From an uncultured bacterium (lineage in GTDB: Bacteria; Patescibacteriota; Minisyncoccia; Phycocordibacterales; PALSA-1337), in NCBI GenBank assembly GCA_963851055.1, contig CAWKMY010000006.1, positions 14,663 through 78,662 on the forward strand: a stretch of 64,000 nucleotides of DNA. The letters run 5' to 3'. Position numbers and translations under genes: made by a program. The notes under the pieces were generated by a model. That model had not been told where the DNA came from. It was given only the letters and a program-made list of their open reading frames with translations, and searched no databases. Shown here piece after piece: positions 22,431-61,498 of the stretch (its first letter is position 1; every line of letters begins with the position of its first letter).

Positions 22431-22943
22431 ATGTTAAATATGCTTAAAACAAGGTCACAACAACTGAACGAGCGTTTATACGAGAATGCAATCTTGTATT
22501 TTATCAAGTATTGCAACAATCAATACCTCGGCAAGACTAAGCTGAATAAGCTTTTGTACTACTTGGATTTCATCTCTTTCAGGGATACGACGAAGACCGT
22601 GAGCGGTGATTCGTATGTACATCAGGAATATGGTCCAGTACCCACTCACATGGATCAAGTATTAACCGAACTCAAAACAAAAGGAATTATTGAAACCGAG
22701 GCTATGCCATACAAAGACGGAGAAATGATCCGTTTTCAGATAAAGAAGACTGACTCCTTGAACGAGAATCTCTTCTCTAAGGATCAAAAAATCCTTTTGA
22801 AAGAAATCTGCGATGAATTCGGTAGTTGGTCAACTGACAAGATCGTGACGCAAACACACCTTGAAGCTCCATGGTTCTTCTCCAAGCCATTTGAAATAGT
22901 CGACTACAAATACGCTGAGGATATAGACTTTTTCCGAAAGTAA
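22431..22943 (+). CDS. Panacea-domain (DUF4065, SocA-like) putative antitoxin
   Basis: KLNKLLYYLDFISFRDTTKTVSGDSYVHQEYGPVP matches the DUF4065/Panacea core (KLxKLLYY...GxPxx...EYGPV). Confidence 0.55.
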   Translation: MLNMLKTRSQQLNERLYENAILYFIKYCNNQYLGKTKLNKLLYYLDFISFRDTTKTVSGDSYVHQEYGPVPTHMDQVLTELKTKGIIETEAMPYKDGEMIRFQIKKTDSLNENLFSKDQKILLKEICDEFGSWSTDKIVTQTHLEAPWFFSKPFEIVDYKYAEDIDFFRK

Positions 22944-22957
22944 TCTCTACTAACGCG

Positions 22958-23347
22958 ATGATCTGGATATATGTCGAACGCGAACAGTATGTCCGGATGT
23001 GCGAGAGGCTAAGGATTTCCACTGAATTGCGTGGAGCAATCAAAAGTTGGGCGCAGACGGTATCGAATAAAAGTGAAGCCCCTCGTTTGAAGCTAGTGTA
23101 TCGCTCACCGAATAATCGCTATGAAGCATGGAATGCTGGAATACCTAACCCAGAGAGCAATCGCGGCAAAAGAGGCGGATATCGCATTGTCTATTTCCTT
23201 GATCTTTTCGAAGGATCAATAAACTTGGATTTCATCGAGGAACGGAAGAACCTCGGATTTGGCAATGAACACCCCAGAGATAAAGAGAGATACAATGATT
23301 ATGTACGCGTGCTGAAAGGATATATCTTGAGATTATGCGCGGAGTAG
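22958..23347 (+). CDS. RelE/HigB/Gp49-like putative toxin
   Basis: NRGKRGGYRIVYFLD resembles the G(K/R)xGGYR(V/I)(I/V)Y signature of RelE/ParE-superfamily Gp49/HigB toxins. The gene starts 15 nt downstream of the Panacea gene. Confidence 0.45.
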   Translation: MIWIYVEREQYVRMCERLRISTELRGAIKSWAQTVSNKSEAPRLKLVYRSPNNRYEAWNAGIPNPESNRGKRGGYRIVYFLDLFEGSINLDFIEERKNLGFGNEHPRDKERYNDYVRVLKGYILRLCAE

Positions 23348-23371
23348 GGAAAAAGCTGTTATACTTCCGAT

Positions 23372-24139
23372 ATGAAAGAGTTTGAGCAAATAATAAAAGA
23401 GGCAGAAAAGCAAGAAGAAATCGTAGGCTTGATCTTGCTCGGTTCACGTGGCAAAGGATTTGAGAATGAATACTCCGATTATGATGCAGTGATGATCGTG
23501 AAGGATGAGTTTGCTGGTGCTTTTAGAGAAAGATATGGAAAACGAGATTTTAACAATGTTGAACTCGTGATAATGTCCATTTCTGACTTCAAGAAATATG
23601 CAGAATGGGGCAGTCCCGAATCGTGGGACAAATACGATTATGCCCATACAAAAATACTTGTAGACAAGACTAACGATTTACCTGCTCTTGTCAAAGAAAA
23701 AGGATTTGTGCCAGCAGAAAAATTGGAAGAGTTTATTGGTGGCTGTATAGATGGATATGTGAATGGGGCATATCGTTCGATAAAATGTATCCGTAATAAC
23801 AATCTATTCGGTGCACGCTTGGAAGCGTCTAACTCGATGCTTGACTTACTAACCTGTGTTTTCGCCTTCAATGGCAGATGCAGGCCTTTTCTTGGGTATG
23901 TCGAGAAGGAACTCGAGAAGTATCCGCTGGAATATCTCCCGTGGCATTCCATCGAACTTCTGGCAAAAATAGAAAAAGTGCTGGCAACTGCAGACCTTAA
24001 AACTCAACAGGAACTACTTATGGGAATTGAAAAGATGAGCCGTGAGACTGGGCATGGCAAAGTGTTCGATGGCTGGAAGGGCAAGGATAAGTGGGCGATG
24101 GAATATAAGCCCGCAGTAAAATCAAAAACCAAGCAGTAA
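23372..24139 (+). CDS. ANT(6)/AadK-family nucleotidyltransferase (streptomycin adenylyltransferase-like)
   Basis: EIVGLILLGSRGKGFENEYSDYDAVMIVKDEF matches the ANT(6) N-terminal GSR...SDYD(I/V)...V.D nucleotidyltransferase motif; about 255 aa as in AadE/AadK. Confidence 0.6.
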   Translation: MKEFEQIIKEAEKQEEIVGLILLGSRGKGFENEYSDYDAVMIVKDEFAGAFRERYGKRDFNNVELVIMSISDFKKYAEWGSPESWDKYDYAHTKILVDKTNDLPALVKEKGFVPAEKLEEFIGGCIDGYVNGAYRSIKCIRNNNLFGARLEASNSMLDLLTCVFAFNGRCRPFLGYVEKELEKYPLEYLPWHSIELLAKIEKVLATADLKTQQELLMGIEKMSRETGHGKVFDGWKGKDKWAMEYKPAVKSKTKQ

Positions 24140-31304: not shown

Positions 31305-31929
31305 TTAGCCGACGATCTCGACAAGCGTTCCGCGGCGTCCCGGGATAGCTCCGGCAACATACAGGATATTCTCTTCTGGGTCAACGTGAGCGATCTTCAG
31401 ATTCTTTACGGTGATGCGATCCGATCCCATGCGTCCAGCCATGCGCATACCTGTCGGTACGCGGTTACGCAAACCTCCGCCGATGGAACCTGGCTCGCGC
31501 TCGCTGTGCTTCTGGCCGTGAGAACGAGGACCTCCGTGGAAACCATGGCGCTTGACCACACCCTGAAAGCCTTTACCTTTTGAAACAGCCGAGACAACGA
31601 CAACGTCACCAGCTTTGAATTGTGAGAGCTCTACTTTGTCGCCGATCTTTAAGAGCAGGGGCTATCTGACCCGGAGTCTGGTCCGTTCGAAATTCAGATA
31701 AAGCGGCAAAATTACCAAGATCTTTGAAATGGCCTTTTTGAGCCTTATTTATCTTATTGGCATTGCGCTCACCTTCTCCTACCTGAACAGCTTCATAGCC
31801 GTCATTTTCCTTTGTCCTCAATTGGGTGACAATATTACCACGGGCGACAACCAGAGTAACTGGAATAGCCGCGCCTGAGGCATCGTAGATTTGGGACATG
31901 TTTAACTTTCTTCCAAGAATAAATTTCAT
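31305..31929 (-). CDS. rplC: 50S ribosomal protein L3, split into two ORFs by an apparent +1 frameshift near 31647-31652
   Basis: N-terminal ORF 31606-31929 (MKFILGRKLNMSQIYD...) and C-terminal ORF 31305-31559 (VKRHGFHGGPRSHGQKHSER...). The conserved GDKVELSQFKAGDVVVVSAVSKGKGFQGVVKRHGF is readable in the second frame upstream of the annotated Met. The frames meet at cttaaagatcgg. Confidence 0.8.
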
Positions 31930-33804: not shown

Positions 33805-35325
33805 CTAGTGAGAATTTAGGTACTGCTGTACTGCGTTCCAGACGGAAGCCGAGAGCGAAGTCTGAAAGTTATACGAGGTCGTCCCTACGCATGCCGAACC
33901 ATTCCATGTCTGACCGGCTACAGGACAAGTGTACTGAGCAGAGTTGAACAGAGACGAATCCCATATCCAGTTGGCTCCGGAAATGCGAGCCCAGCTTCTA
34001 TAGAGGTTATTTGACGGTATAACTAAGGTGGATCCTCCGGATGATTGTTCCGTACCATCGCTCGAGGCTATGATGCTCCCTCCCGAAGATATGGTGTAAT
34101 CAACTCCGGCTGGATTTCCCCACCATCCCCATTCTATGGACGGATTCGGAATGTTTGTAACCGTTATAGCTATAGTATTGCTACCTTGATTGACGGCAGA
34201 AGTGATGTCGTAAGTCTTAGGTGATGTGAAGTTAGTCGCATTCACATCTCCTGAAGCAACAGGGATACCATTCACAGACACGGAATATCCGTTATCAGCC
34301 GCTATAGACAGAGACACTGGGCTGGTTGTCGAAGTCAAATTGAATGTCTTGGTGAAGGTTATGACTTGCGGAGGAACGTTGGCGTAAGAGACTGGAGCCG
34401 ATGGAGGAGTCTGCGTCTGCGTTGAGCACGTGTAGCTAGGCGGACAATTCGAGGTGACACCGGTGCAAGTGTATCCTGAAGGACAAGTGGTCGTCTGACC
34501 AGGAGGAGTACAGACATAACCTGCAGGACAAGCAACAGGGGTAGCAGTCACATTCACCGTCGTTGTCGTCTGTGCGGACAAGCCTGCGCTGTCGGTCACC
34601 GAGAATGTAATCGTGTAATTCCCCGCTGAAGCGTATGAATGGGTGAACGTAGAATTCTGTACAACAAGGCTAGCGCTGTTCGCACATACATAACCGACAG
34701 GGCAGGCTGAACCATTATCTCCCCAATTGACCGAGTAACTCAACGAACCATTCTGCGGATCACTTGCATTGACCGCCCAAGTACCTGTCTGACCGACCGT
34801 GAGTGTCGTCGGGAACGTCCCGCCGGAGATGACCGGGGGTTGGGAAGTCGGCTGCTGTGTCGTGGTACAAACGTAACCATTGCAAGACGCCTGTGAGATA
34901 GAACTATTGTATAGAGCGGAATCCCATATCCAGCTAGCGCCAGGAATAGAAGTCCATGAATAGAGAATCTTGCTTTGCGGAATAACTATAGTCGATCCGC
35001 CGGAAGATTGTTCTGTGCCATCGCTCGAGGCCAGAGTCGCCCAGTTCTGAGTTACCTTGTAGTCCAGTCCGGCCGGATTGCTGGCCCAGATAGTGCCGGT
35101 AGTCGCTGGATTGACGATATTGTCCACCGTTATAGCCAAAGTGTTGCTTCCCTGATGGATAGCCGAAGTTATATCCACATTCTGCGGTGAATAGAAGTTC
35201 GTCTCTGAATTGTTCGTCGAGACATTCGTGCCATTCACGGAAACGGAGAATCTGTTATCAGCCGCGATGGCGAGAGTCACCGGACTGCCGGTCTGGTTCA
35301 CATTGAAGGTCTTGGTGAAGGTCAC
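33805..35325 (-). CDS. Extracellular Cys-rich repeat protein (PKD-like domain, two about 170-aa internal repeats); probably the C-terminal part of one giant gene with 35333..37678
   Basis: CP(A/V/S)GY(V/T)CT repeats; PKD-like WGDNGS...AGNYTITFSVTDSAG; duplicated ITFTKTFN...SSDGTEQSSGGST...WIWDS modules. GTG start with no signal peptide. The frame stays open upstream (…NDQVVTFTKTFN), matching the internal repeat. Confidence 0.55.
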   Translation of the reverse strand: MTFTKTFNVNQTGSPVTLAIAADNRFSVSVNGTNVSTNNSETNFYSPQNVDITSAIHQGSNTLAITVDNIVNPATTGTIWASNPAGLDYKVTQNWATLASSDGTEQSSGGSTIVIPQSKILYSWTSIPGASWIWDSALYNSSISQASCNGYVCTTTQQPTSQPPVISGGTFPTTLTVGQTGTWAVNASDPQNGSLSYSVNWGDNGSACPVGYVCANSASLVVQNSTFTHSYASAGNYTITFSVTDSAGLSAQTTTTVNVTATPVACPAGYVCTPPGQTTTCPSGYTCTGVTSNCPPSYTCSTQTQTPPSAPVSYANVPPQVITFTKTFNLTSTTSPVSLSIAADNGYSVSVNGIPVASGDVNATNFTSPKTYDITSAVNQGSNTIAITVTNIPNPSIEWGWWGNPAGVDYTISSGGSIIASSDGTEQSSGGSTLVIPSNNLYRSWARISGANWIWDSSLFNSAQYTCPVAGQTWNGSACVGTTSYNFQTSLSASVWNAVQQYLNSH

Positions 35326-35332
35326 GACTTGA

Positions 35333-37678
35333 TCATTCGGACCAACATTGAGAGCTGTTGAGACCGGGGTCGGAGTACGTGGTAGGCGTTTCGCTGTAAC
35401 ATGTATAACCAGTCGGGCAATTGCTTATACTGACTGGAGTGCAGACATAACCAGCAGGACAGCCTGATGAACCACCACCTGGAACTGAACATATGTAACC
35501 AGCAGGACAGACAGCTGAAGCGCCTCCATTAAACATCACCACAGCTTTCAAATTATCTAGACCAGAAGTGATGGAGTACGCATGAAGGTTAGTCGCACTG
35601 GTACCATAATCTATCGCCGTCATTTGAGCTATGTTGGCGCCATTTACGGTAGCCGCCGAACTACTAAGGGTACCGCTTAGATTTATCTGACGAGAAGAAC
35701 CTGGCGGAAGATACCAATAATTTTCATTATCTCCTGGCACTAGGGATGGAACCGCTCCGCTAGCGACAATGTTCGGTATGATATTTCCATTTCCTGAAGC
35801 AAAGTGTAGAGAGGAGTAGGTATTCTGCGCGACAGAAGTGCTTACGAATATCGGATTATTCCCCGCTATCAGAGTGAAAGAGAAAGTGACAGGCTGGACA
35901 CAAGAGACCATTGCATTATCACAAGTCTGAGAGCCAAGCGTCGACGAAGTATTACTGATTTGGACGCCGCTAGAGGCGGAAGAGAAGGTGATGGTGTTAC
36001 CGACTATAAGACTTTGCCCAGCAGATACATTATTATAGTTAGAATCGAGTGCCACAAGTGCGCTCGTAGGCAACTCAACTAATGCATTCGAGCTATTGAG
36101 ATTATGATTCGTATCTTGAGCCACGCTACCTAGGATCGTGATCGGCACAGAGACATCCGCGGGCAGGGGGATGTTGAAATTAGTGAACGATACGCTCTTG
36201 TTATCGCTAGCAATCGAAGTTTCAGCATACGTTCGACCGCCTGCTTTTATAAATAGATTAGTGAAGAAACTGGATATATTCGTATTTCCTCCGTTTACGA
36301 TCACGCCGATAGTAAGCGCTTGAAGCGTAGAAGGACTGCCTTGTGACTTCACATCAAACACCGCGAGTGGCACATTTTGAGTCACTGCTGAAGTCGAGAT
36401 CTGCACTGTGCTCGCAAGTGGCGAAGACGGATCGAGAGAAGCGGTTATTCCTGCGCCACCAATCGGTTGTGGATTGATTGGCTGAGGCTGGGCACAACTC
36501 TTATTCAAGGCCGCACGAGTCGCCGGACCAAAGAAGCCTGTAGCAGGTATGCCTACGCTAGCCTGATATTTTGCCACAGCGGCGGCTGTTTGATAACTAT
36601 ATACGCCCTTTTGCTGGCGACCGGAAGAGACGGCCGGAATGTCATAACCGTTGCCCATGAGCCATGTCTGTAGGGCAACGACGTCAGCACCTGTAGATCC
36701 AATAGTTAAGTTGTTACTGAATACATAGCAAGACGTCGAACCGGCTGATTGAACTTGGAAGCTGACCTGATTGCTGGCACCGGTATTTTCATTTTTGACT
36801 TGAATACTATGATAGCCATTTGTCAGAGACGGCGCGACAAATGTCATAGATGTACCGTCAGTCGATATACCAGTAGTCACATTGTACAAAACACTGTTAT
36901 CTATAAATATGACGGAATTCGTAAGCCGCTGACCCGATATCGTGAGTGTCTGTCCCGGGCTGACGATACTCGGCGTGACGGAAGTTATATAAGGAGAAAC
37001 TTCGCCGACGATGGTGACCGCATTGCTCTGATTCGTTGGAACACTGGCAAATACCGATGATCCATCAGTGCTTGGAGGCATTGAATCACCGTAAACACTC
37101 TGAAGGCTTGCCGTGTAGCTTCCAGCGAACATTTGCTTTGGATTGACACTAGCGGAAACACCAAAACTAGTAGTCTGTCCCGGTGCTACAACGAACACAT
37201 TCCTGCCATATGAATCGACACTGCTGCTTGCAAGGGAAGAATTAGACGGAGTAATGACTACTTGACCAGAGCCTTGGCTATGAGCCGATGAAATGAACTG
37301 TACGGCGGCTCCATTCTGATATATTTCAATACCTTGAGTATTACCATGAACTGTAAATGATCCCGTAAGGGTAAGAGCAGCTTCGCCATGTTGGGAATCA
37401 TAAGTAAGCGCCAAAGAAGGTGTTCCGTTTATCGTAACCGTGGCATCTGTAGTCGGAGCTACAACACCCCCGCCGCCACCTGAAGAACCTCCGCCTGAAT
37501 TATTAGGCGTACAAACATATCCTACTGGACAATTAGTGACCGGAGTTATTGGCGTACATGTATATCCAGCCGGACAAGCTACCGTCTGCGCCTCTGCCGC
37601 AGGAGCTGGCATAAAAGCGACTAAGGCGAGAGAGAATGCTACAACCGGAACGATAACCGAAAACATGGCTCTTTTCAT
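35333..37678 (-). CDS. Secreted giant surface protein with signal peptide, CPxGYxCT Cys-rich repeats and a PG_binding_1-like peptidoglycan-binding domain
   Basis: Signal peptide MKRAMFSVIVPVVAFSLALVAFMPAPAAEA; LTIGSTGADVVALQTWLMGNGYD...GFFGPATRAALNK PGBD; many CPAGYVCT units. Confidence 0.6.
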   Translation of the reverse strand: MKRAMFSVIVPVVAFSLALVAFMPAPAAEAQTVACPAGYTCTPITPVTNCPVGYVCTPNNSGGGSSGGGGGVVAPTTDATVTINGTPSLALTYDSQHGEAALTLTGSFTVHGNTQGIEIYQNGAAVQFISSAHSQGSGQVVITPSNSSLASSSVDSYGRNVFVVAPGQTTSFGVSASVNPKQMFAGSYTASLQSVYGDSMPPSTDGSSVFASVPTNQSNAVTIVGEVSPYITSVTPSIVSPGQTLTISGQRLTNSVIFIDNSVLYNVTTGISTDGTSMTFVAPSLTNGYHSIQVKNENTGASNQVSFQVQSAGSTSCYVFSNNLTIGSTGADVVALQTWLMGNGYDIPAVSSGRQQKGVYSYQTAAAVAKYQASVGIPATGFFGPATRAALNKSCAQPQPINPQPIGGAGITASLDPSSPLASTVQISTSAVTQNVPLAVFDVKSQGSPSTLQALTIGVIVNGGNTNISSFFTNLFIKAGGRTYAETSIASDNKSVSFTNFNIPLPADVSVPITILGSVAQDTNHNLNSSNALVELPTSALVALDSNYNNVSAGQSLIVGNTITFSSASSGVQISNTSSTLGSQTCDNAMVSCVQPVTFSFTLIAGNNPIFVSTSVAQNTYSSLHFASGNGNIIPNIVASGAVPSLVPGDNENYWYLPPGSSRQINLSGTLSSSAATVNGANIAQMTAIDYGTSATNLHAYSITSGLDNLKAVVMFNGGASAVCPAGYICSVPGGGSSGCPAGYVCTPVSISNCPTGYTCYSETPTTYSDPGLNSSQCWSE

Positions 37679-37924
37679 GGTTTTATGTGATTACGAACTA
37701 ATTAATAGATAATGGACGACATCCAAATACTTGCTCAAGTATACCCCCCCCCGACGAATTTGCACAATATAAGTTGTGAACAGTCGAGATGCAAGGAGAA
37801 AGCGACGCTCGCCGTCTGGCAAGCATCGCTTGGGTAGTGGAAACATTATAGCGCGTCACAAATTGCATGCAAAGAGGTTATCCACATGTTAAAGTGAAAC
37901 CGTGCACGCAGACATTTACCTAAA

Positions 37925-38779
37925 ATGAGGAAAGTTTTTAAAGTTCTAATATACATATTTGCCGTAATCGGCTTTGTACTGGTCATCGTCTATGCGGCTC
38001 TAGAGCTTGGCCTAACCAAAACAGCCGGTATCATCGATGCTCAACATGATTATTTCAAAAACCAATTGAGCAACGCCACAAATACAGATTCTTCCGGTAT
38101 CAATTCATTTAATAGCGATGCCTGGGCTCAAGGTGAAGAGTGGACCGTGCTCAAAGAAGCTATCGCAACTGATACAAAAAGCATAAATATGGCAGCTCAA
38201 CTCTCCGGCGTGCCAGCTAGAATGATCACTTCCCTACTCATCGTCGAACAGCTACGACTTTTCCATTCGGATCGTGAATTATTCAAAGAAGTTTTCGCCC
38301 CACTCAAGATATTGGCTGTTCAAAGCCAATTTTCTTGGGGTGTCATGGGTGTGAAGCAAGATACTGCGCGGCAAATAGAAAACAACCTAAAGGATCCGAG
38401 CTCGCCATGGTATTTGGGACCTGAATATAGCCATTTATTGGACTTTGCTACTTCAACGGCTACTTCGACTCTGCCGAATCAGGATACCCAGCGTTTCAAT
38501 CGTCTGACGGATGAGCATAACCGATATTATTCTTACTTATATGCTGGATTATTCGTCAAAGAGATCGAGGCTCAATGGCAGAAAGCCGGCTTTCCTATAG
38601 CTGATAGGCCGGACATCATCGCCACCCTCTATGACATCGGTTTTGGTAATTCCCACCCCAATGCCAATCCTCTTTCTGGTGGCGCGGAGATAGATGTTGG
38701 CACGACTACTTATAGTTTTGGCACTCTGGCAAATAGCTTTTACCAGTCAAATGAGATGACTGACATATTCCTGAAATAA
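37925..38779 (+). CDS. Membrane-anchored putative lytic transglycosylase-like protein
   Basis: N-terminal TM; MAAQLSGVPARMITSLLIVEQLRLF ... SQFSWGVMGVKQDTARQI reminiscent of SLT-domain E...S...GxMQ..TA pattern (weak). Confidence 0.4.
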   Translation: MRKVFKVLIYIFAVIGFVLVIVYAALELGLTKTAGIIDAQHDYFKNQLSNATNTDSSGINSFNSDAWAQGEEWTVLKEAIATDTKSINMAAQLSGVPARMITSLLIVEQLRLFHSDRELFKEVFAPLKILAVQSQFSWGVMGVKQDTARQIENNLKDPSSPWYLGPEYSHLLDFATSTATSTLPNQDTQRFNRLTDEHNRYYSYLYAGLFVKEIEAQWQKAGFPIADRPDIIATLYDIGFGNSHPNANPLSGGAEIDVGTTTYSFGTLANSFYQSNEMTDIFLK

Positions 38780-38854: not shown

Positions 38855-39364
38855 ATGAGCGTAACATCATTGAAAAGTGAGGATGCCACCCAGACGGGTG
38901 TCATGAGAACAAACATCATCCGCGTCGAAGCCGAGGAAATTCTCCGGTTGCGGCATCAAGGATTGAGAACGAACCGGCCCATAGATGTGGCGAGATTCGA
39001 AGGCGACCACGCCAAATCATCGTGGCACTTGGCGGCCGTCCCCGTTGATGAAAACGGTTGGAAAATACTCGGCAGCGACGTCATAGGCTGCGCCAGTTTC
39101 ATTGCGGGCAAACTGGAAGATCATAGCACCTGGCAGCTCCAAGGCTTGGTAGTCACCACCAGTTTCAGAAAAATGGGGTTGGGACGGAATTTGCTGGCCT
39201 ATGCCGAAAGCCATATCCCAACGGATACCGGTATCCACTTGTTCTTGTGCGACGCCCCATTGGAGACGGTCAGATTCTTCGAGAAGTGTGGCTGGATGGT
39301 CATTTCCGACCAAATAGACGTGCAGGACTTCGGCGCCTGTCGGAAAATGGTCAGGCAGTTGTGA
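38855..39364 (+). CDS. GNAT family N-acetyltransferase
   Basis: Motif A QLQGLVVTTSFRKMGLGRNLLAYAE. Confidence 0.65.
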   Translation: MSVTSLKSEDATQTGVMRTNIIRVEAEEILRLRHQGLRTNRPIDVARFEGDHAKSSWHLAAVPVDENGWKILGSDVIGCASFIAGKLEDHSTWQLQGLVVTTSFRKMGLGRNLLAYAESHIPTDTGIHLFLCDAPLETVRFFEKCGWMVISDQIDVQDFGACRKMVRQL

Positions 39365-39476
39365 TACCATGTGAATCTATCGAGCCGCGGGAATGATCCT
39401 GCGGCTTTTTTAATTAAAACATTTAGAGCTAATAAAAAGCCGGACGTGAGTCCAGCTATTACGGCAATCCGGGGCA

Positions 39477-39761
39477 TCAATCTTCTTCGACCTTGGTTTT
39501 GGGCGCAAATCTTTGCGGCACCCACGCCTCATCCCTCGACGATGTGGGCTCTCCTCGAGGAAATAAGGCCCTAAGGACTCGTTTTTGGTCCCGACGATCA
39601 AGGGTTTCTTCGATCACTCTTTTCGCCTTCATTGCATCCGTCTGGACTACCGGGCCCTTTTTGAGAGCCTCAGCGTCAGACTTCTTGTTTATGACATTCA
39701 AGGTAACCTCTGGTGTTAATTTGTTCATGACAAGCGTAATACTCAATCTAGAAAAAATCAA
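39477..39761 (-). CDS. Hypothetical small protein
   Basis: 94 aa ORF, basic; no family assignment. Confidence 0.25.
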   Translation of the reverse strand: MIFSRLSITLVMNKLTPEVTLNVINKKSDAEALKKGPVVQTDAMKAKRVIEETLDRRDQKRVLRALFPRGEPTSSRDEAWVPQRFAPKTKVEED

Positions 39762-39838
39762 GATGGAACTATTTCATTGCCTCACTTTCAATTGACACAA
39801 TTCCAACATAGAAGTAGTCTGACCACGGATGGTAAACA

Positions 39839-40585
39839 ATGAAACTAAAGAAACTTATGAAAAAACCAAATGAAATCGCTGAGCAGAACTTTGCCAAATT
39901 ACGCAGTAACATCTATCCCGGCCGCGGCATCATCGTCGGCGTTGATGAGACGGGACAAAACATGGTCCAAGTCTATTTCCTCATGGGCAGGAGCGAAAAT
40001 AGCCGGAACCGCATTCTGAGTTCCGAAGGGGGACGCCTATTCACCGAAGCAGCTGACCCAGCCAAGGTGAAGGACCCGAGCCTGATCATCTATAATGCCA
40101 TGCGCGACGATGGAAAAAACTTCGTCGTGAGCAATGGCCATCAGACCAATGCCGTCATGACGAGTCTCCAGTGTGGAGGATCTCTTGCCCTGGGATTGGA
40201 AGCATACGAATATGAGCCCGATGCTCCAAACTACACACCGCGCATCACAGCCGTTTGCTGGCCGCGTGGTTCCATGATTGCTGAGGTGTCCATATTGAAG
40301 AAGTCGTCTGACACCCCTCCCTGCAATCGTTTCTATTACGGGTATGCAACGATTTCTCCTGGGTTCGGCTACTGCGTCACCACATACGATGGAGACGGCG
40401 ACCCATTACCATCGTTCACCGGAGGGCCATTCACAATGCCGCTCAATGGCGATGCCAAAATGGTAGCGGAAACTTATTGGGCTGCCCTAAACACGGATAA
40501 CCGGATCTCATTAGCAGTCAAATGGATTCCGAGGGGAAACGTGGAGTCAACGGTCCACGTCATCAACCGGTTCAGCAAGGCCTAA
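39839..40585 (+). CDS. PurO-like (archaeal-type IMP cyclohydrolase family) protein, tentative
   Basis: IYPGRGIIVG...VYFLMGRSENSRNR resembles N-terminus of PurO family; assignment from memory only. Confidence 0.35.
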   Translation: MKLKKLMKKPNEIAEQNFAKLRSNIYPGRGIIVGVDETGQNMVQVYFLMGRSENSRNRILSSEGGRLFTEAADPAKVKDPSLIIYNAMRDDGKNFVVSNGHQTNAVMTSLQCGGSLALGLEAYEYEPDAPNYTPRITAVCWPRGSMIAEVSILKKSSDTPPCNRFYYGYATISPGFGYCVTTYDGDGDPLPSFTGGPFTMPLNGDAKMVAETYWAALNTDNRISLAVKWIPRGNVESTVHVINRFSKA

Positions 40586-40656: not shown

Positions 40657-42802
40657 TTACTTCCTCTTCTCCTTTATACCCTCTGCAACGTTAGCCGGAA
40701 CGACTTCATAGTGATCGAATTCCATCTGAGCAGAACCTTGGCCGGAAGTCATGGAACGAAGAGCCGTGGTATAGCCGAACATCTCTGACAATGGAACCTT
40801 GGCGATGATAGAGATGACTTGGCCCTTTGGATTGGAGCCCTCGATGGTACCGCGCTTGGAAGCAATGGAACCATTGACGTCACCCATGTACTTCTCCGGA
40901 CAGACGACTTCGAGCTTCATGATAGGTTCGAGAATGACAGGCTTGGCGCGCTTGGCTGCATCTTGGAAAGCCTGGGAAGCGGCTATCTTGTAAGCGATCT
41001 CTGATGAGTCAACGTCGTGGTAAGAACCGAAAGTGAGCTCGCAGGAAATGTTAACAAGTTTGAAACCGGCGACGATACCGCGATCGAGTGCCTCACGAAC
41101 ACCTTTCTCGACGGCTGGAATAAATTCATTCGGAATGACGCCGCCTTTGATGGAGTTGATGAATTCAAAATCATCATAGCGGTGAACTGTCTTGGGTATC
41201 TTCTCCCCTTCCGGCCATGGTTCCATAGGTTTCGAGAGTCAGACGGACGTGACCGTATTGACCCTTGCCTCCGGTCTGCTTGATATATTTGTGTTCAGCT
41301 TCAGCGGTGCCGAGGATGGTCTCACGATATGCTACCTGTGGCTCACCGACATTGGCTTCAACGCCAAATTCGCGCTTCATACGATCCACCATGATCTCGA
41401 GGTGAAGTTCTCCCATGCCTGAAATAATAGTCTCGCCTGTTTCCTGGTTGCTGGAGATACGGAATGTTGGGTCTTCATTGCCGAGCTTGCGCAGAGCCAA
41501 GCCCATTTTCTCCTGATCAGCCTTGGTCTTCGGCTCGATGCGTAGAGACACAACCGGTTCCATGAATTTGATAACTTCGAGGACTATCGGGTGTTCCTCA
41601 TCGCAGAAAGTATTGGAAGTGAGGGCGTCTTTCAGTCCTACGGCGGCAGCGATCTCTCCGGCAAAGACTTTCTTGACCTCTTCACGCTTGTCGGCTTGGA
41701 GGCGGACGATACGACCGAGGCGTTCCTTCTTGCCAGTGGTGGAATTGTAAATATATGAACCAGCTTCTATGGTTCCGGAATAGACACGGAAGAATGTCAG
41801 AGCTCCGACGAATGGATCATTCTGAAGTTTGAATGCCAAGGCGGAAAAAGGTTCTTTGTCATCTGCGTGGCGGAGTATCTCTTCGCCTGTATTCGGGTCA
41901 ATACCCTTTATTGGAGGCATATCTAGAGGCGAAGGCAGGTAGTCGACGACGGCATCGAGAACGAGTTGAACGCCTATATTCTTCAAGGCGGAACCAGTGA
42001 AGACTGGGAACATCTTGTTGTCTATGACGGCACGGCGGACGATTTTCTTGAGCTCATCAACCGAAGGAGTTTTACCATCGAGATAAGAGGCCATGGCCAC
42101 ATCATCATGCTCGACGATCTTTTCTATGAGCTCGGCATGATATTTCTTTGCATCGGCGGCGAGTTCATCAGGAATCTCTTTTTCAACTATTTTATTTCCC
42201 ATTTCTCCCTCGAAATAGTATGCCTTCATCTTTAGAAGATCGACTACCCCAATGTGATTGCCCTCTGTGCCTATAGGGAGCTGGAAACGAACGGCCTTCG
42301 GACTCAACCTTTCGAGAATTGATTTGAATGAAAATTCGAAAGAAGCTCCCATGCGGTCCATTTTATTGATGAAACAAAGACGTGGCACATTGCCTTCGTC
42401 GGCATAGCGCCAGTTGGTCTCTGACTGTGGTTCAACGCCGGCAACGCCGTCGAAAACCACAACTGCTCCGTCGAGTACGCGTAGAGACCTTTTCACTTCT
42501 ACAGTGAAGTCGATGTGTCCAGGAGTGTCGATGATGTTGAAGCGAACCATCTTCGACTTATCGGTCGGAGGCATGTATGACGGATTCCAGAAACAAGTGA
42601 TAGCGGCAGCCGTGATGGTGATACCGCGCTCGCGCTCCTGTTCCATCCAGTCTGTGACAGTGTCACCTTCGTGCACTTCACCGATCTTGTGCGTCATTCC
42701 TGTATAGAAAAGAATACGCTCTGATGTAGTCGTCTTGCCCGCATCGATGTGGGCAATGACTCCGAAGTTACGTACTTGAGAGAGTGGGTAGTCGCGGTTC
42801 AT
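40657..42802 (-). CDS. fusA: Elongation factor G, split into two ORFs by an apparent +1 frameshift at about 41224-41236
   Basis: N-terminal ORF 41174-42802 (AHIDAGKTTTSERILFYTG...GQYGHVRLTLET) and C-terminal ORF 40657-41226 (MEPWPEGEK...). The frames switch inside aacctatggaaccatgg, a near-tandem aaccatgg duplicate with one extra t. Confidence 0.85.
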
Positions 42803-46466: not shown

Positions 46467-46934
46467 TTATGGTGCCGTCCCTCCAGAGATATCATACATT
46501 TTCTCATAGGTTCTCGGATCTATGATAAATGCGGAAACGACCTGATTCTCTGAACCAGGCGTTTTTGTTATCTCAAGAACTACTCCATAATTTCTACTAA
46601 TTTTCCGTGTTAGGATAAAACTATTATCTCGTTTTAGAAAATTGTTGACTATCTTTTCGGGCATATTTAGAACCACTGGAATTATACTTATAACTTCATC
46701 GGCCTTATTTCCTCTACTGTCGATGATATGCTTGAGAGCTCTTCTGGAAATATATACCCCACGGGATTTAGACCCGATAACTTGTGCCGTGCAGTATGAG
46801 ATGAATGCCACACTAAATATTCGGAGTGGATCGGGAATGGCCTCACCAACACTGATGTTCTTAAGCTCCTCAATTATTTCATCCGGTATACTCATGTATT
46901 TATGTTCATTGAGAAATACCGATGTCAATTCCAT
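46467..46934 (-). CDS. Hypothetical protein, paralogue A of a two-member family with RR(A/T)LKH motif
   Basis: Aligns with ORF 48733..49176: YISRRALKHIIDSRG...IIPVVLNMPEKIV...VVLEI vs FFTRRTLKHLAEKG...IIPNILEYPDVIF...IIVIEF. Confidence 0.4.
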   Translation of the reverse strand: MELTSVFLNEHKYMSIPDEIIEELKNISVGEAIPDPLRIFSVAFISYCTAQVIGSKSRGVYISRRALKHIIDSRGNKADEVISIIPVVLNMPEKIVNNFLKRDNSFILTRKISRNYGVVLEITKTPGSENQVVSAFIIDPRTYEKMYDISGGTAP

Positions 46935-48732: not shown

Positions 48733-49176
48733 TCACGAAAGTGAGCCGCCCGTCCTCCAGAGAATCTCAAAGTTCTTGAGGTATTTTTCGTCCGTGACAA
48801 AAGATGTGACCAGAATCACGCCTCTCTCAAGAAATTCAATTACGATTATATGCGGCTCTCTTTTCTTGCCCTGATTGAAAAATTTTGCAGAAAGTAACCG
48901 AGTCTTCTTTCCCCGGAAAATAACATCTGGATATTCGAGGATATTTGGAATAATTCCGAGCAATCTTTTACCCTCTACTCCCTTTTCGGCAAGATGTTTT
49001 AGTGTACGTCGAGTAAAAAATGCCTGTAACTTTCCTCTAGAAAAAATCTGCATAATTACAGGGTGTACAGAAAAACCAGTCTGGATTAATTCATCAGGCC
49101 TATCAATCAAAATCCCTTTCGGAATTTTTTGGAATTCGTAAAAAATTGACCGTAAAGGTGTGGTGTGCTTATTCAT
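48733..49176 (-). CDS. Hypothetical protein, paralogue B (RRTLKH motif)
   Basis: See paralogue A; overlaps stop of comEC N-terminal gene by 4 nt. Confidence 0.4.
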   Translation of the reverse strand: MNKHTTPLRSIFYEFQKIPKGILIDRPDELIQTGFSVHPVIMQIFSRGKLQAFFTRRTLKHLAEKGVEGKRLLGIIPNILEYPDVIFRGKKTRLLSAKFFNQGKKREPHIIVIEFLERGVILVTSFVTDEKYLKNFEILWRTGGSLS

Positions 49177-56259: not shown

Positions 56260-57831
56260 TCATTGCAGCTGTTGCCAGGAAATAACCTGATACTGCGTCG
56301 TAGCTTGCGGGAATGAAGGCGGCGGCCCATAGAGGAGGTTGTTATCGTAATTGATATTGCGTATGGCATAACCTGTGTTATCCGTGTAGGCAAAACCATA
56401 TCGGAGAGCAGTGCCTATCATGCCGAGGAGCGTGAGCGAGCTTCGCGTAGAATAATTGGTACTACTGACGGAACAATTGCTATTGTAATAGAATCTGCCG
56501 ACGCGGCCGTTCTCGGCGACCAATGCTCCATCTATCTCGTAGCTGTTGTCGCTGACCATTCCGGAGTTTATATTTCCCTGGGCTATTAGGCCGATGACAT
56601 CATTGCCGTTTGTATTCGTATATTTCAGATTGGTGTTTATATTTATATTGGTATAGCTATTGGCGCTGGAGGCTCCGACATTCGCGGAGGCTATAGTCAC
56701 GCGGGCATTGCTCACTGTACCGTCGACCCACAGGTCGTCATCGACGAAAATAATATCGTTGGTAGGGATCGGCCATGAATGGTCTAGATTCGGCCCAGTA
56801 TTGACTAGAATCTCGCTGGCGCCGGACTGACTTCCACCGACTAGGTTGTTGATGGTCCATGTGCCCCAGTTCGTGCCGGTATTCTGTTGGCCGTTCTGAT
56901 TCATCTGACTCTGAGCCGTGACGTCATTGCCGCAATTGCTCGGAGTAGGCTGAAGGGACGTGACTTTGTACATGTTGTATTCGGTCACTCCGCCCACGAC
57001 TTGAAAGACTATGTGATACCCGTAATATCCAGAACCCAAAGCGGTCCATTCCTTGCCGCTCTGCTGTGCCAGCGTCTGCAGTTGCGTCAAGTTCGCCGTC
57101 AAGCTATTGAAAGAGAATGCGGGAACCGGAGATTGCCTGCCGGCCATGAAGATGTCAGGCCGATTTATGACGGGAGTGTTCGGTTGGGGATCAGGATTCG
57201 GATATGTGGGCGGATTGGTCACATCCGTGTACACAGCCCATTCATTGAGGCCAGTGTCGGGATCGGTATAAGTAGTAAGAGCGCTCGCCACCAAGTTGTG
57301 AGCCACGCCGTCGAAATGGATGCCTTTATTGGACTGGATCGGACCGTATATGGTTGTGCCTGGACCGAAATACATATTGTCGTTGGCCACCACGGCAAAT
57401 TTCGCCAGTGAAGGTATGGCCATAGACTCCTGGACTTTGCGGGTGATCGTAGACGAAGCCAATGTGCCAACGGAAAGTATTTTTACTATAGTCGATCCGG
57501 TCGGCGGCGGAGTTATGGTCAAAGAATATGTTCCCAAAAGATTGTCGTTGCGATCGTAAAAATTGTGGACATATGGTCCGGAGTTGTTAGTTCCGTCTTT
57601 ATAATCCGTCGGGAATTGAGCCAAGTGCCATTGATAGTAGTCCACGCCTGCTTCGGCGATCTGCAAAGCCTGTTCCCTAGATGCCACGCTCCTTATGTTG
57701 GATAGCATGGACACGCCCCAGTTGGTAAGTCCCGTGATTATGGTCACCGCTATGGCTGCAAAAATAATGACTGACAGGAGAATGTCGCCACTTTCCATTT
57801 TCATCTTTGCTTTTTCCATTTTCATATTCAT
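56260..57831 (-). CDS. Large pilus-associated protein (pilin-like N-terminal hydrophobic segment, non-canonical leader)
   Basis: 523 aa, N-terminal TM-like helix, Thr/Asn/Gly-rich; clustered with pilins. Confidence 0.45.
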   Translation of the reverse strand: MNMKMEKAKMKMESGDILLSVIIFAAIAVTIITGLTNWGVSMLSNIRSVASREQALQIAEAGVDYYQWHLAQFPTDYKDGTNNSGPYVHNFYDRNDNLLGTYSLTITPPPTGSTIVKILSVGTLASSTITRKVQESMAIPSLAKFAVVANDNMYFGPGTTIYGPIQSNKGIHFDGVAHNLVASALTTYTDPDTGLNEWAVYTDVTNPPTYPNPDPQPNTPVINRPDIFMAGRQSPVPAFSFNSLTANLTQLQTLAQQSGKEWTALGSGYYGYHIVFQVVGGVTEYNMYKVTSLQPTPSNCGNDVTAQSQMNQNGQQNTGTNWGTWTINNLVGGSQSGASEILVNTGPNLDHSWPIPTNDIIFVDDDLWVDGTVSNARVTIASANVGASSANSYTNININTNLKYTNTNGNDVIGLIAQGNINSGMVSDNSYEIDGALVAENGRVGRFYYNSNCSVSSTNYSTRSSLTLLGMIGTALRYGFAYTDNTGYAIRNINYDNNLLYGPPPSFPQATTQYQVISWQQLQ

Positions 57832-58436
57832 AGGTTGCTCTTTAGATTACGCAGGTTCGCCTGAACCGTGTAAGTTATCGGCGCTGGTGAACGGTTCGGA
57901 TCAAGATCAAGGGTGATATTTATCTTTACCAGACGAACTGCCGTGGTCGTGACCGGTTGGGTAAGTGGCGAGCTTGTACCGTTGTAATTCGTATCGAAAT
58001 ACTGGAAAACGGGAGTGTTTGAACCGTTGCGAACACTCGTCAGTAAAGTCGAAGTCGATTGGTTGGCGATCAGGTACGTTGGTGGGTTGCCCGAAGGTTG
58101 TATGACAGCGCGGTATAGAGTTGTGGTAGAAAGTGAATAGGTGACTTCTTCCTCTGTGCCGTCATTATCCGGATCAGAGAAAAAAGATATGGTCGTACTG
58201 CCGGCATTTACCAGTGGATATGAGCCGTCAGCCCCGGGGGCCATCTCGCGCAATTCCGTGAGCATGGTCTTCAGAATGACTTGGGCATTCTGGGCCGTCT
58301 GAAAAGATCCGGAGACATTGCCCTGGTATATGAATACATTTGCTTCAAACATGCCCACGGATACTATGACCGTCGCGAATATGGCGAGAGTTATGAGCAC
58401 TTCGACCAATGTCATTCCCCTATTGAAAGCCTTCAT
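57828..58436 (-). CDS. Type IV pilin-like protein (prepilin leader MKAFNRG / MTLVEVLI)
   Basis: G-1, M+1, E+5 prepilin peptidase motif and hydrophobic alpha1 helix. Confidence 0.6.
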   Translation of the reverse strand: MKAFNRGMTLVEVLITLAIFATVIVSVGMFEANVFIYQGNVSGSFQTAQNAQVILKTMLTELREMAPGADGSYPLVNAGSTTISFFSDPDNDGTEEEVTYSLSTTTLYRAVIQPSGNPPTYLIANQSTSTLLTSVRNGSNTPVFQYFDTNYNGTSSPLTQPVTTTAVRLVKINITLDLDPNRSPAPITYTVQANLRNLKSNL

Positions 58437-58454
58437 TGATTTAATTGTACCACG

Positions 58455-60290
58455 CTACAAATGGCTTAATGAGATCGTCTTCTGTTGCCAGCCGCTCCCT
58501 ACGGTCACGCTACCAGAATATGGAGAATAACCGCTCGCGGATATCGAGACCGTGTAGGTGCCGGTCGAGAGTCCTTGGAACAGGACTTGTCCCGGCGGTA
58601 TACATCCGGAAGTATAAGCGAAGGAAACATTCGAGACCGCAGGAGTGACGGTGGCAGTGTTAGTGGTCAGATAGGCCTTATAGCGGGCAAACTCATTACT
58701 GTTATTTATGCTATTGATGGAGCCTCCCGGAACAGTGAAAAAGGTATTGGACGTTCCATCCGGACCGCTATAGCTCCAAGGACCGTTCGGACTGGAGCTG
58801 GGGGCCGTGGCGAACTGGAATTTCACCGGCGTAGTCCCGGCTTTGAGCGGCTGATTTATGGGAGCCCAATTGAAGATATAGAAATTACTGGTCGTACCGG
58901 TATCGAAAGTAGAAGATTCCAAAGTTCCCGTGGCGTTGGTTAGATACGGAGTCGAGCCACCGAGCCAATGCAAGACGATGTTGCCCGAAGAAGTGCCGGC
59001 GACAGTGGTGTCCACTCCACCGTTATTCGTGGCGTAAGCTTTTGGATCGATAAATGCGCCGTTCTGGGTCGGACCATCTGACCAATTTGATTGAGAGAGG
59101 TATCCTTGTCCGGTTATGAACGTGCTGTTATAGCTGCTTGGGCCCGTCAATTGGACAGTTGCGTTCGATATGGGCAACTTGCTGGAACCGTCCATTACGG
59201 AGATCATCAGACTGTTCGGGTTGTGAGGCACCACGGTCAGTTGGATATTCTGGACATTATTCGGATTGAGAACCACCGGACTGAATGGATTTATACCCGC
59301 AATATCGTATGTAGTGACGGTAGGCGTGATGTTATAAGTATCCCATTCCATATTATTCATATTCAGTAGGCCGCCGGAATTTGTGGAAAGGCTTGTCGCC
59401 GGATATTTCAACACTCCTACACCTATCAGCTTCGAGCCCGCCATGGAAAAACTGATATTCCCTGTCGGCACGCAAGTCGGCGAAACGCTGGTGAAATTGA
59501 GCGTGCTCAAGGCGTCTATGGATAAGCTCAGGCTAGTAACTTGTTGATTTAGCACGGTCGCATCAGGGTTGGTAGGGTTGGGATTGCCGGAACCGCCTAC
59601 GGGATAAGTCCTGTCAGTAGAGTAACCTTGTTTTGTCACGGTGATCCTATACATGCTAGCTCCGGGCGGTACGCCGATGACATTCAAAACGCCATTATCG
59701 TTGGTAACATCGGTATCCTGAACAGAAGAAGTTGCCAGACTCTGGATATTGACCGTGGCGCCTTGGACCGGTTGGCCGTTCGCGTTGAAGACGCTGACGA
59801 CGATGGCGCCACCGGTTGATGCAGATTGGAGATTGGCCGGGGAAACTTGGCCGGACAAAGCTATAGGCTGGAAATCCTTGCATGTCGGACAGGTGACATC
59901 TACCTCGACAATCTTGTCGCTAGCTTGAACGCTCGAGGTCGAAAGATTTATGTTGCGAATGGTCAGGCCTACGTTAAATGTATACCCGCCGCGTACCAAA
60001 GTAGTTGTCGCCGGCAAAATGCCCTGAGGTATGCCATTGGTGAGACCAACTGATACATATGGCATATTTCTGACGATCTCGAATTGCTCATCCGCCAATT
60101 CGACCGCCAATGTCCGAGACTGGCTACCACTCGACAATTGGATCAAACTTGTAAAAGCACTGTAAGAGGCAAGGCCAACCATTAGAAATATGGCCGTGCC
60201 AATCAGAACCTCGATCAATGAGAAACCTCGGGCTTTTTTCCCTCCTTTCCTCTTCCTTCTTTCTCCCTGCTTCATATTAATTAATGGCAT
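58455..60290 (-). CDS. Giant type IV pilin-like protein (611 aa) with long basic leader
   Basis: Leader MPLINMKQGERRKRKGGKKARG then FSLIEVLIG (G-1, F+1, E+5). Confidence 0.6.
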   Translation of the reverse strand: MPLINMKQGERRKRKGGKKARGFSLIEVLIGTAIFLMVGLASYSAFTSLIQLSSGSQSRTLAVELADEQFEIVRNMPYVSVGLTNGIPQGILPATTTLVRGGYTFNVGLTIRNINLSTSSVQASDKIVEVDVTCPTCKDFQPIALSGQVSPANLQSASTGGAIVVSVFNANGQPVQGATVNIQSLATSSVQDTDVTNDNGVLNVIGVPPGASMYRITVTKQGYSTDRTYPVGGSGNPNPTNPDATVLNQQVTSLSLSIDALSTLNFTSVSPTCVPTGNISFSMAGSKLIGVGVLKYPATSLSTNSGGLLNMNNMEWDTYNITPTVTTYDIAGINPFSPVVLNPNNVQNIQLTVVPHNPNSLMISVMDGSSKLPISNATVQLTGPSSYNSTFITGQGYLSQSNWSDGPTQNGAFIDPKAYATNNGGVDTTVAGTSSGNIVLHWLGGSTPYLTNATGTLESSTFDTGTTSNFYIFNWAPINQPLKAGTTPVKFQFATAPSSSPNGPWSYSGPDGTSNTFFTVPGGSINSINNSNEFARYKAYLTTNTATVTPAVSNVSFAYTSGCIPPGQVLFQGLSTGTYTVSISASGYSPYSGSVTVGSGWQQKTISLSHL

Positions 60291-61497: not shown

Positions 61498-61498
61498 A

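Follow-up and report, generated by a model that had tools for sequence, protein, structure and literature searches.

A probable wall-anchored surface protein of an uncultured patescibacterium, encoded between fusA and tuf by a gene divided in its deposited sequence

We describe a gene lying between fusA and tuf in a stretch of 64,000 nucleotides (nt), hereafter the window, from an uncultured bacterium of the Patescibacteriota (GenBank assembly GCA_963851055.1, contig CAWKMY010000006.1, positions 14,663 to 78,662 of the forward strand). The gene occupies 33805..37678 of the minus strand, directly upstream of tuf and co-directional with it, and counts 1,290 codons once one surplus base is removed; as deposited, it appears as two open reading frames (ORFs) of 781 and 506 amino acids (aa). 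Three plus-strand genes separate it from fusA: they encode a 284-aa membrane-anchored protein (here p284), a GNAT acetyltransferase and a PurO-like IMP cyclohydrolase. A preliminary description, made from the DNA letters and their translations, had placed the gene between fusA and tuf and suspected that a frameshift splits it; both points hold.

The interrupted gene and its reading frames

The first frame, ORF1 (35333..37678, minus strand, 781 aa, ATG start), begins with MKRAMFSVIVPVVAFSLALVAFMPAPAAEA, a typical Sec signal peptide. The second, ORF2 (33805..35325, minus strand, 506 aa), starts on GTG and lacks a hydrophobic N-terminus. All-frame translation of the junction shows that the frame of ORF2 remains open in the 5' direction as far as 35424, where it encodes ...TPTPVSTALNVGPNDQVVTFTKTFNV; this upstream reading mirrors the linker and first strand of the second copy of an internal repeat, PPSAPVSYANVPPQVITFTKTFNL. 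We therefore reproduce what the preliminary description had reported for the two ORFs: a signal peptide on the first, none on the GTG-initiated second, and a second frame that runs open into the end of the first and there resembles the start of its own repeat. A promoter-like TTTGCA-17-TATAAT element (37845..37873, minus strand) is found about 170 nt 5' of the start codon; it matches the consensus, with no enrichment over shuffled sequences.

A single ORF of 1,290 aa results when one base is removed, whether this is the T at 35377 or a C from the CCCC run (35366-35369). When the homologs P0002 and P0013 were compared with the window by tblastn, the alignments passed from frame -1 to frame -2 between 35381 and 35373. 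Together with a DNA alignment to L001, the locus of P0002, this narrows the site of the surplus nucleotide to 35366..35381 (minus strand), in a Thr/Pro linker and inside the interval of about 35330-35400 proposed earlier. The DNA alignment prefers the T at 35377, in ACG[T]ACT, as the inserted base, one C of the CCCC run being the alternative; the exact base cannot be fixed from the sequences compared, and ACG[T]ACT is our best guess.

Four homologs (P0002, P0013, P0005 and P0006), all full-length proteins of 950-1,600 aa without interruption, cover the junction in single high-scoring segment pairs. Across it, P0002 reads ...TPPTPVSTALNIGPYDQVVTFTKAFN... and ...GGGTTPPTPVSTALNIGPYDQVVTFTKAFNVNQTGSPVTLAIAADN... 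in one frame. Full-length homologs carry a signal peptide at the N-end and a tag of WDAV type at the C-end. Here the two are shared out between the ORFs: ORF1 ends without the conserved C-terminal motif, ORF2 ends in ...SLSASVWNAVQQYLNSH, and the merged protein alone holds both. Because homologs cross the junction in single segment pairs, tblastn alignments switch frame within it, and signal peptide and tag sit on separate ORFs, these sequence comparisons show that ORF1 and ORF2 are one gene of 1,290 codons divided by a +1 frame change. Its product had been called giant; at 1,290 aa, large is the better word.

In the public annotation the same frames stand as two genuine genes, one for a secreted protein of 781 aa and one for a protein of 506 aa initiated at the GTG. 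Such a reading agrees with the output of the ORF caller, and the first product exists as a database protein (P0001). Yet ORF2 consists wholly of extracellular-type domains with paired cysteines and carries no signal peptide. The GTG of ORF2 falls within the first strand of a jelly-roll domain (VTFTKTFN), homology extends about 16 codons 5' of it in the ORF2 frame, each full-length homolog is a single ORF, and the exact 506-aa product is absent from the protein collection searched. Two separate genes are already contradicted by these observations, and we give them hardly any weight. Recoding of UGA (genetic code 25) was also considered as the cause of the split and rejected: reading through TGA in frame -1 leads to non-homologous sequence and to more stops.

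Two neighbouring genes are interrupted in the same manner. The gene for EF-G, fusA (40657..42802, minus strand), switches frame near 41231 and is split into ORFs of 542 and 189 aa; EF-G of the related locus L004 matches the window by tblastn in two successive frames, the first covering residues 1-531 and the second 531-721, and the window has one surplus base (CTCGAAACC, against GTC-AAGCC in L004). The gene for ribosomal protein L3, rplC (31305..31929, minus strand), switches near 31648 into ORFs of 107 and 84 aa; residues 1-96 and 96-209 of L3 from L004 match in two frames, and DNA alignment again reveals one surplus base relative to L004. Both genes, at 6 kb (fusA) and 4 kb (rplC) from the surface-protein gene, have intact counterparts in L004. 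Elsewhere in the window, none of the genes checked was found to be split (S5/L15, L5, L14, SecY, PilB, PilC, PGK, TIM, RecJ and ComEC).

With three frameshifts in 31.6-41.2 kb and none among the genes checked elsewhere, errors cluster in this part of the window. As fusA and rplC are essential, single-copy genes, their shifts cannot reflect the living organism, and that of fusA is almost certainly a sequence error. Since both carry the same type of one-nucleotide insertion nearby, the frameshift in the surface-protein gene most probably arose in assembly or sequencing as well. The public annotation splits all three genes through single-base errors, which calls for caution among users of this assembly.

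The frameshift may still be genuine in the organism, and two points weigh on that side: the case for an artefact is drawn wholly from the assembled sequence, and the searched collections hold no relative of more than 57% identity for a base-by-base comparison. The gene would then be a pseudogene or an 'off' phase variant, of which only the 781-aa N-terminal fragment, from the signal peptide to the second linker cluster, is made. Inactivation or phase variation is common among surface proteins, the family is highly mosaic and variable, and the 781-aa product is present as a protein in the public record. A run of four C lies inside the candidate interval, but it is far below the usual length of a phase-variation tract, and the DNA alignment prefers a site outside any homopolymer. 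The 520 codons downstream of the shift are open, conserved and up to 77% identical to P0002; this absence of decay argues against an old pseudogene. Finally, one-nucleotide insertions of the same kind occur within 6 kb in the essential fusA and rplC, where they would be biologically intolerable. We judge a real frameshift improbable and continue with a single gene interrupted, most probably, by a sequence error.

Domains, linkers and the C-terminal tag

Two AlphaFold2 models, built on alignments of the relatives, predict the individual domains with confidence (mean predicted local distance difference test, pLDDT, of 73.5 and 74.6); all window coordinates of this section are on the minus strand. 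The chain opens with a stretch modelled as disordered, made of the signal peptide (37589..37678; read from the sequence, and similar in look to the N-termini of homologs), a first cluster of two CPxGYxC linker units (37511..37576, of low pLDDT) and a Gly/Ser-rich run after it. It is followed by an Ig-like beta-sandwich of no Pfam family (37043..37441; strands at residues 80-212, pLDDT of about 80-90) and by an IPT/TIG Ig-like domain at residues 229-308 (36755..36994; 230-309 in the model), which scores 31 bits against a cut-off of 20.9 and covers positions 1-83 of 84 in PF01833. Next comes a three-helix PG_binding_1 domain bracketed by Cys317 and Cys395 (36494..36730; residues 325-393 in the model, with helices at 331-342, 362-375 and 385-393). 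It matches the full PF01471 profile (1-57) with 44.8 bits against a Pfam cut-off of 23 (E 1.4e-11). Two beta-sandwiches, again of no Pfam family, lie beyond it: a module that is shuffled among family members (35975..36451, residues 410-568) and one with a Cys586-Cys593 pair (35534..35962, residues 573-715). A second linker cluster of three units, modelled as hairpins of short strands at 729-765, occupies 35399..35509.

Past the junction, the first copy of a CBM67-like/galactose-binding-like jelly-roll (34915..35331) and a single shortened Cys loop, CNGYVC, seen in the sequence (34867..34884), lead to a PKD domain (34546..34842), into a loop of which a CPVGYVC unit is inserted (34684-34704). 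The domain scores 37.3 bits against 27 for PKD_4 (PF18911) and 25.6 against 23.5 for PKD (PF00801), and Foldseek links it to collagenase (ColG) and archaeal PKD domains, with template modelling (TM) scores of 0.74-0.82 on target length for those of ColG and 4XED. A third cluster of three linker units (34426..34530; hairpin strands, pLDDT of about 78-80) precedes the second jelly-roll copy (33955..34368). The chain closes with a tag, LSASVWNAVQQYLNSH (33808..33855), which is a family motif predicted to form a helix (516-528 in the model). The peptidoglycan-binding and PKD domains of the preliminary description are borne out, both above Pfam cut-offs.

For the three unnamed beta-sandwich segments, Pfam returned nothing useful at E values up to 10, and a fold search with the 781-aa model gave generic matches to strings of Ig domains only (integrin legs, SGBP-B, the S-layer protein SbsC and a biofilm-associated protein). 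The C-terminus, ...TSLSASVWNAVQQYLNSH, has neither an LPXTG motif nor a transmembrane segment; Pfam and NCBIfam match no SLH or other recognised S-layer domain; and a catalytic (alpha/alpha)6 or TIM-barrel domain is absent from all 1,290 aa, as judged by Pfam and the AlphaFold2 models.

Nine matches to C-x3-[FYW]-x-C and one shorter C-NGYV-C unit occur in the protein; over 20,000 composition-preserving shuffles, the motif appeared 0.04 times on average and at most twice. The 26 cysteines form 13 short-range pairs: ten loops of CP type, the bracket around PG_binding_1 and two others. Between domains, CP units stand alone or in groups of two or three, the one in the PKD loop apart, and their number varies from 0 to 17 among relatives. 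They were suspected earlier to fit no named family, and the searches agree: neither Pfam nor NCBIfam has a model for CPxGYxC. The sole Pfam match, Lustrin_cystein (PF14625), reaches 16.3 bits, under the cut-off of 27, with no single stretch passing by itself, and a word-indexed homolog search with the concatenated linkers gave no matches. We found no description of the family in the literature searched on the Cys motif, on surface and S-layer proteins of the candidate phyla radiation (CPR) and on PKD adhesins. According to the models, CP units are short inter-domain linkers that form small hairpins and make up no domain of their own, in place of the beta-solenoid or EGF-like structure that had been raised as a question. 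In each loop, seven residues would be closed by a disulfide between the paired cysteines. As to composition, Ser, Thr and Asn account for 34% of the protein, and Asp, Glu, Lys and Arg for only 5.8%. Together with the paired cysteines, these values speak for an extracellular protein.

The internal duplication, first put at about 170 aa, is real and involves units of 170-180 aa: the copies are 54% identical over 187 aa (E = 1.4e-53). Both match Glyco_hydro_2_N2 (29.3 bits against 27) and, at the borderline, Bac_rhamnosid_N (25.2 against 25) in Pfam; NCBIfam gives rhamnoside_JR at 37.1, under its cut-off of 50, and otherwise only accessory-domain matches of rhamnosidases and beta-galactosidases. 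Searched against the PDB with Foldseek, the modelled jelly-rolls (pLDDT mostly 85-95) match 3W5N with E 1.2e-11 and a Pleurotus ostreatus lectin, 6T1D, with E 8e-11. The best PDB match in sequence, obtained with phmmer, aligns copy 2 to residues 144-230 of 3W5M (E 1.9e-7). An AADN motif is present in both copies, and the ADN of copy 2 aligns with ISADN at positions 179-180 of the 3W5M chain, reportedly residues that bind calcium and rhamnose.

A non-catalytic module, CBM67 binds rhamnose in a calcium-dependent manner (PMC4690510, PMC11512411), and an analogous acidic pair has been described (PMC11512411). The mushroom lectin has two related carbohydrate-binding domains, which are 42% identical (PMC11512411). 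Profile, sequence and fold matches identify the duplicated unit as a CBM67/galactose-binding-like jelly-roll lectin domain, which may bind a sugar in a calcium-dependent way. The best sequence and fold matches belong to GH78 and GH2 enzymes, and the protein could on that ground be taken for a glycoside hydrolase of rhamnosidase or galactosidase type. These matches are, however, limited to the non-catalytic N-terminal jelly-roll/CBM67 module of the enzymes, as with residues 144-230 of 3W5M, and the catalytic barrels are missing. As the domain map holds only the accessory jelly-roll, hydrolase activity is contradicted and its likelihood practically negligible; the domains are better read as lectins.

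A conserved motif, for example ...SASIWDAVKEYLSFH, closes almost every full-length relative; in 34 of the 55 family members its strict form lies 11-18 residues before the end. Its consensus is roughly [ST]-A-[SA]-[IV]-W-[DN]-A-[IV]-x-x-[YF]-[LFY], predicted to form an amphipathic helix of 16 residues. A hidden Markov model (HMM) of the tag, run over the ORFs of all fetched loci (363,020 residues), gave six matches of at least 8 bits, all of them at most 8 residues from a C-terminus; two fall on large secreted proteins that had not been recovered as relatives of the surface protein. Pfam and NCBIfam hold no model of the tag. The motif (..SASVWNAVQQYL..) is also found at L006:15271-18471 and L044:5415-9896. 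It is confined to the very C-terminal end of large secreted proteins, among them two that are otherwise unrelated. Possible roles include anchoring in the outer leaflet of a membrane, docking to a partner or sorting.

Relatives and neighbouring genes

A search of 5.8 billion proteins returned the 781-aa ORF itself, in NCBI/ENA on a contig of 213,759 nt, and 54 relatives, mostly of 950-1,600 aa. Members of this family are 36-57% identical to the window protein along extended collinear regions; a scan of genome contigs with the 781-aa ORF gave no relative. Several relatives, from metagenome-assembled genomes of Patescibacteria, Paceibacterota and Taylorbacteria, are named 'peptidoglycan-binding protein'. 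The surface protein is an uncharacterised, fairly ordinary member of a recognisable modular surface class.

The same succession of genes (fusA, p284, large surface protein, tuf) is met again in L004, in L007 (Candidatus Taylorbacteria) and in L008, and in L001 the gene for P0002 lies directly upstream of tuf. The GNAT and PurO-like genes of the window (38855..40585, plus strand) have as counterpart cargo in the L004 gap two PemK toxins, so that only p284 and the surface protein are conserved there. The ribosomal cluster of the window is interrupted by accessory genes (22431..24139, plus strand; 46467..46934 and 48733..49176, minus strand): a SocA/Panacea antitoxin-like gene, a nucleotidyltransferase and, near ComEC, two ORFs for PBECR2/PBECR3 nucleases of barnase/EndoU type. 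Since L004 carries PemK and HTH/Gp49 genes at comparable positions, the gaps in these operons look like insertion hot spots. Further along the minus strand, a type IV pilus cluster (57828..63247) encodes the PilB ATPase (61499..63247), the PilC platform protein (60277..61497) and a pilin of 202 aa (57828..58436), as well as a pilin-like protein of 611 aa (58455..60290) that has both an N-methylation motif and a CarboxypepD_reg domain.

The gene p284 (37925..38779, plus strand) is divergent from the surface-protein gene and encodes a conserved protein with an N-terminal membrane helix and an invariant Glu108. Syntenic with its L004 counterpart, it is 74% identical to it, against 36% for the surface protein. 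Its representative relatives at E <= 1e-3 number 281 and belong to Patescibacteria and to Bacteroidota (Prolixibacteraceae). In about 20 of about 50 Patescibacteria loci, the homolog is paired divergently with a large signal-peptide protein, and several of these partners have helix-type C-termini; in Bacteroidota it stands beside a protein of about 300 aa with a LysM-like end. Searches with p284 gave no match in Pfam, NCBIfam, PHROG or the PDB, the last queried both directly with phmmer and with a 26-sequence profile. Weak matches to DUF1402 appear in 17 of the 26 relatives and none on the window protein; the literature searched contains no mention of DUF1402 that we could find.

The preliminary description had called p284 transglycosylase-like. 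In hhalign comparisons with soluble lytic transglycosylase (SLT) domains of E. coli, Glu108 (in VEQ) falls on the catalytic Glu (in ES) and GVMGVKxxTA on GLMQxxxTA of SLT, at probabilities of 7.6-14.5%; the alignment of five E. coli paralogs gives 7.6%, and EmtA and Slt70 are likewise not significant. The likeness to Family 1 lytic transglycosylases (Slt70, EmtA, MltC/D/F) is confined to Glu108 and the GVMGVKxxTA alignment, whereas p284 has E-Q rather than E-S, a much longer spacing to the third motif and no Pfam SLT match. The label is plausible from the aligned motifs; with hhalign probabilities this low, it is a lead and not a finding.

Proposed role and comparison with known systems

Patescibacteria live attached to other microbes, and to our knowledge the attachment proteins are unknown for most lineages, Paceibacteria included. 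Adhesins are needed for the epibiotic growth of cultivated Patescibacteria (PMC10633639). From the comparisons and models above, we think it probable that the locus encodes one Sec-secreted, modular surface protein of 1,290 aa in Paceibacteria/Taylorbacteria-like Patescibacteria (CPR), split by one surplus base that is most likely an error, and that this protein acts as a wall-anchored, glycan-binding adhesin or coat.

After export and cleavage of the signal peptide, the protein would form a chain of beta-sandwich spacers (Ig-like, TIG, PKD) joined by CPxGYxC units, whose 7-residue disulfide loops may stiffen the linkers and protect them from proteases. The central PG_binding_1 domain would hold the chain non-covalently on peptidoglycan, most simply that of its own wall, and the two CBM67-like domains could recognise a sugar displayed by another surface, for instance rhamnose or galactose. 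With such properties, the protein might serve an epibiotic cell as an adhesin of lectin type or as part of its surface coat. The C-terminal helix may serve as a docking, anchoring or sorting tag.

Several points weigh against this picture. Sugar binding, peptidoglycan binding, disulfides and localisation are all deduced from sequence and models, and the models do not predict how the domains are arranged relative to each other (predicted TM score of about 0.35). The wall targeted by PG_binding_1 could be the cell's own or that of a host. If the C-terminal helix lies in a membrane, the lectins would be held near the cell, which would fit a coat or S-layer-like protein better than a reaching adhesin. 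The orientation of the protein on the cell, and any link to p284 or to pili, we can only infer. As for the preliminary description, its attachment role at the cell surface stands as the best reading, and its more specific proposal, engagement of a host cell wall, is purely inferential.

A mainly structural part in the envelope is possible, if unlikely: the protein would be an S-layer-like coat held by PG_binding_1 and the C-terminal helix more than an adhesin for a partner cell. The low charge and the abundance of Ser, Thr and Asn agree with it, as do a wall-binding domain placed mid-chain and a position immediately 5' of the highly expressed tuf, in the same orientation. The string of Ig-like domains also has weak fold matches to SbsB and SbsC, but these are of the generic Ig-string type, and neither SLH nor any other S-layer anchoring domain is present. 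Two lectin modules suggest ligand binding, and the wide variation in domain number and order across the family would be unusual for a lattice former.

Another alternative is a function linked to the type IV pilus, for instance as an adhesin associated with it or as an accessory to its assembly. The genes for P0005 and P0008 lie directly upstream of pilM-pilO-pilB-pilT-pilC (L002:8001-18919, L003, L006:8001-12771), and pilB, pilC and pilin genes are present in the window at 57.8-63.2 kb. Such adjacency is seen in two independent loci only, however; here and in the closest relatives the gene has its place in the fusA-tuf interval, some 20 kb away from the pilus genes, and the N-terminal methylation motif of pilins is missing. 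We find this alternative very doubtful, and retain the wall-anchored, glycan-binding adhesin or coat.

A bolder extension can be formulated, in which the tag would be an undescribed sorting or anchoring signal specific to Patescibacteria, p284, possibly lysozyme-like in fold, a dedicated installer that opens or remodels the wall, and CPxGYxC a new linker of this class of exports; we would not expect it to hold as a whole. The locus nevertheless offers a concrete candidate for an attachment protein, predicted to be tethered to the wall and to bear two lectin modules, at a conserved position between fusA and tuf and beside a conserved membrane protein. The CPxGYxC linker and the C-terminal helix tag, both missing from domain libraries, could help to recognise the surface proteome of these organisms.

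The closest known proteins are those of the Patescibacteria 'peptidoglycan-binding protein' family (P0002, P0010, P0013, P0046 and P0048), which have the same set of modules (N-terminal beta-sandwich and TIG, PG_binding_1, two beta-sandwiches, PKD and jelly-roll), the CP linkers, the signal peptide and the WDAV-type tag. Module order and copy number differ in every member, and the window protein is set apart by its two jelly-roll copies and by the one-nucleotide insertion that splits it in the deposited sequence. The jelly-rolls share their beta-jelly-roll fold with CBM67 of the Streptomyces avermitilis rhamnosidase SaRha78A (3W5M/3W5N), to which the ADN motif aligns, and with the Pleurotus ostreatus lectin (6T1D, 6LI7), which also has two tandemly related copies. 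In contrast to these, no catalytic domain is attached here, the copies are separated by the PKD domain and CP linkers, and sequence identity is only about 15%.

In overall plan, a signal peptide, an Ig-like stalk and terminal ligand-binding modules recall the wall-associated adhesins of Gram-positive bacteria (MSCRAMM-like) and SGBP-B of Bacteroides. Unlike them, the protein described here has neither an LPXTG sortase signal nor a lipoprotein signal; an internal PG_binding_1 domain would attach it to the wall without a covalent bond, and it adds Cys-loop linkers and a C-terminal helix tag.

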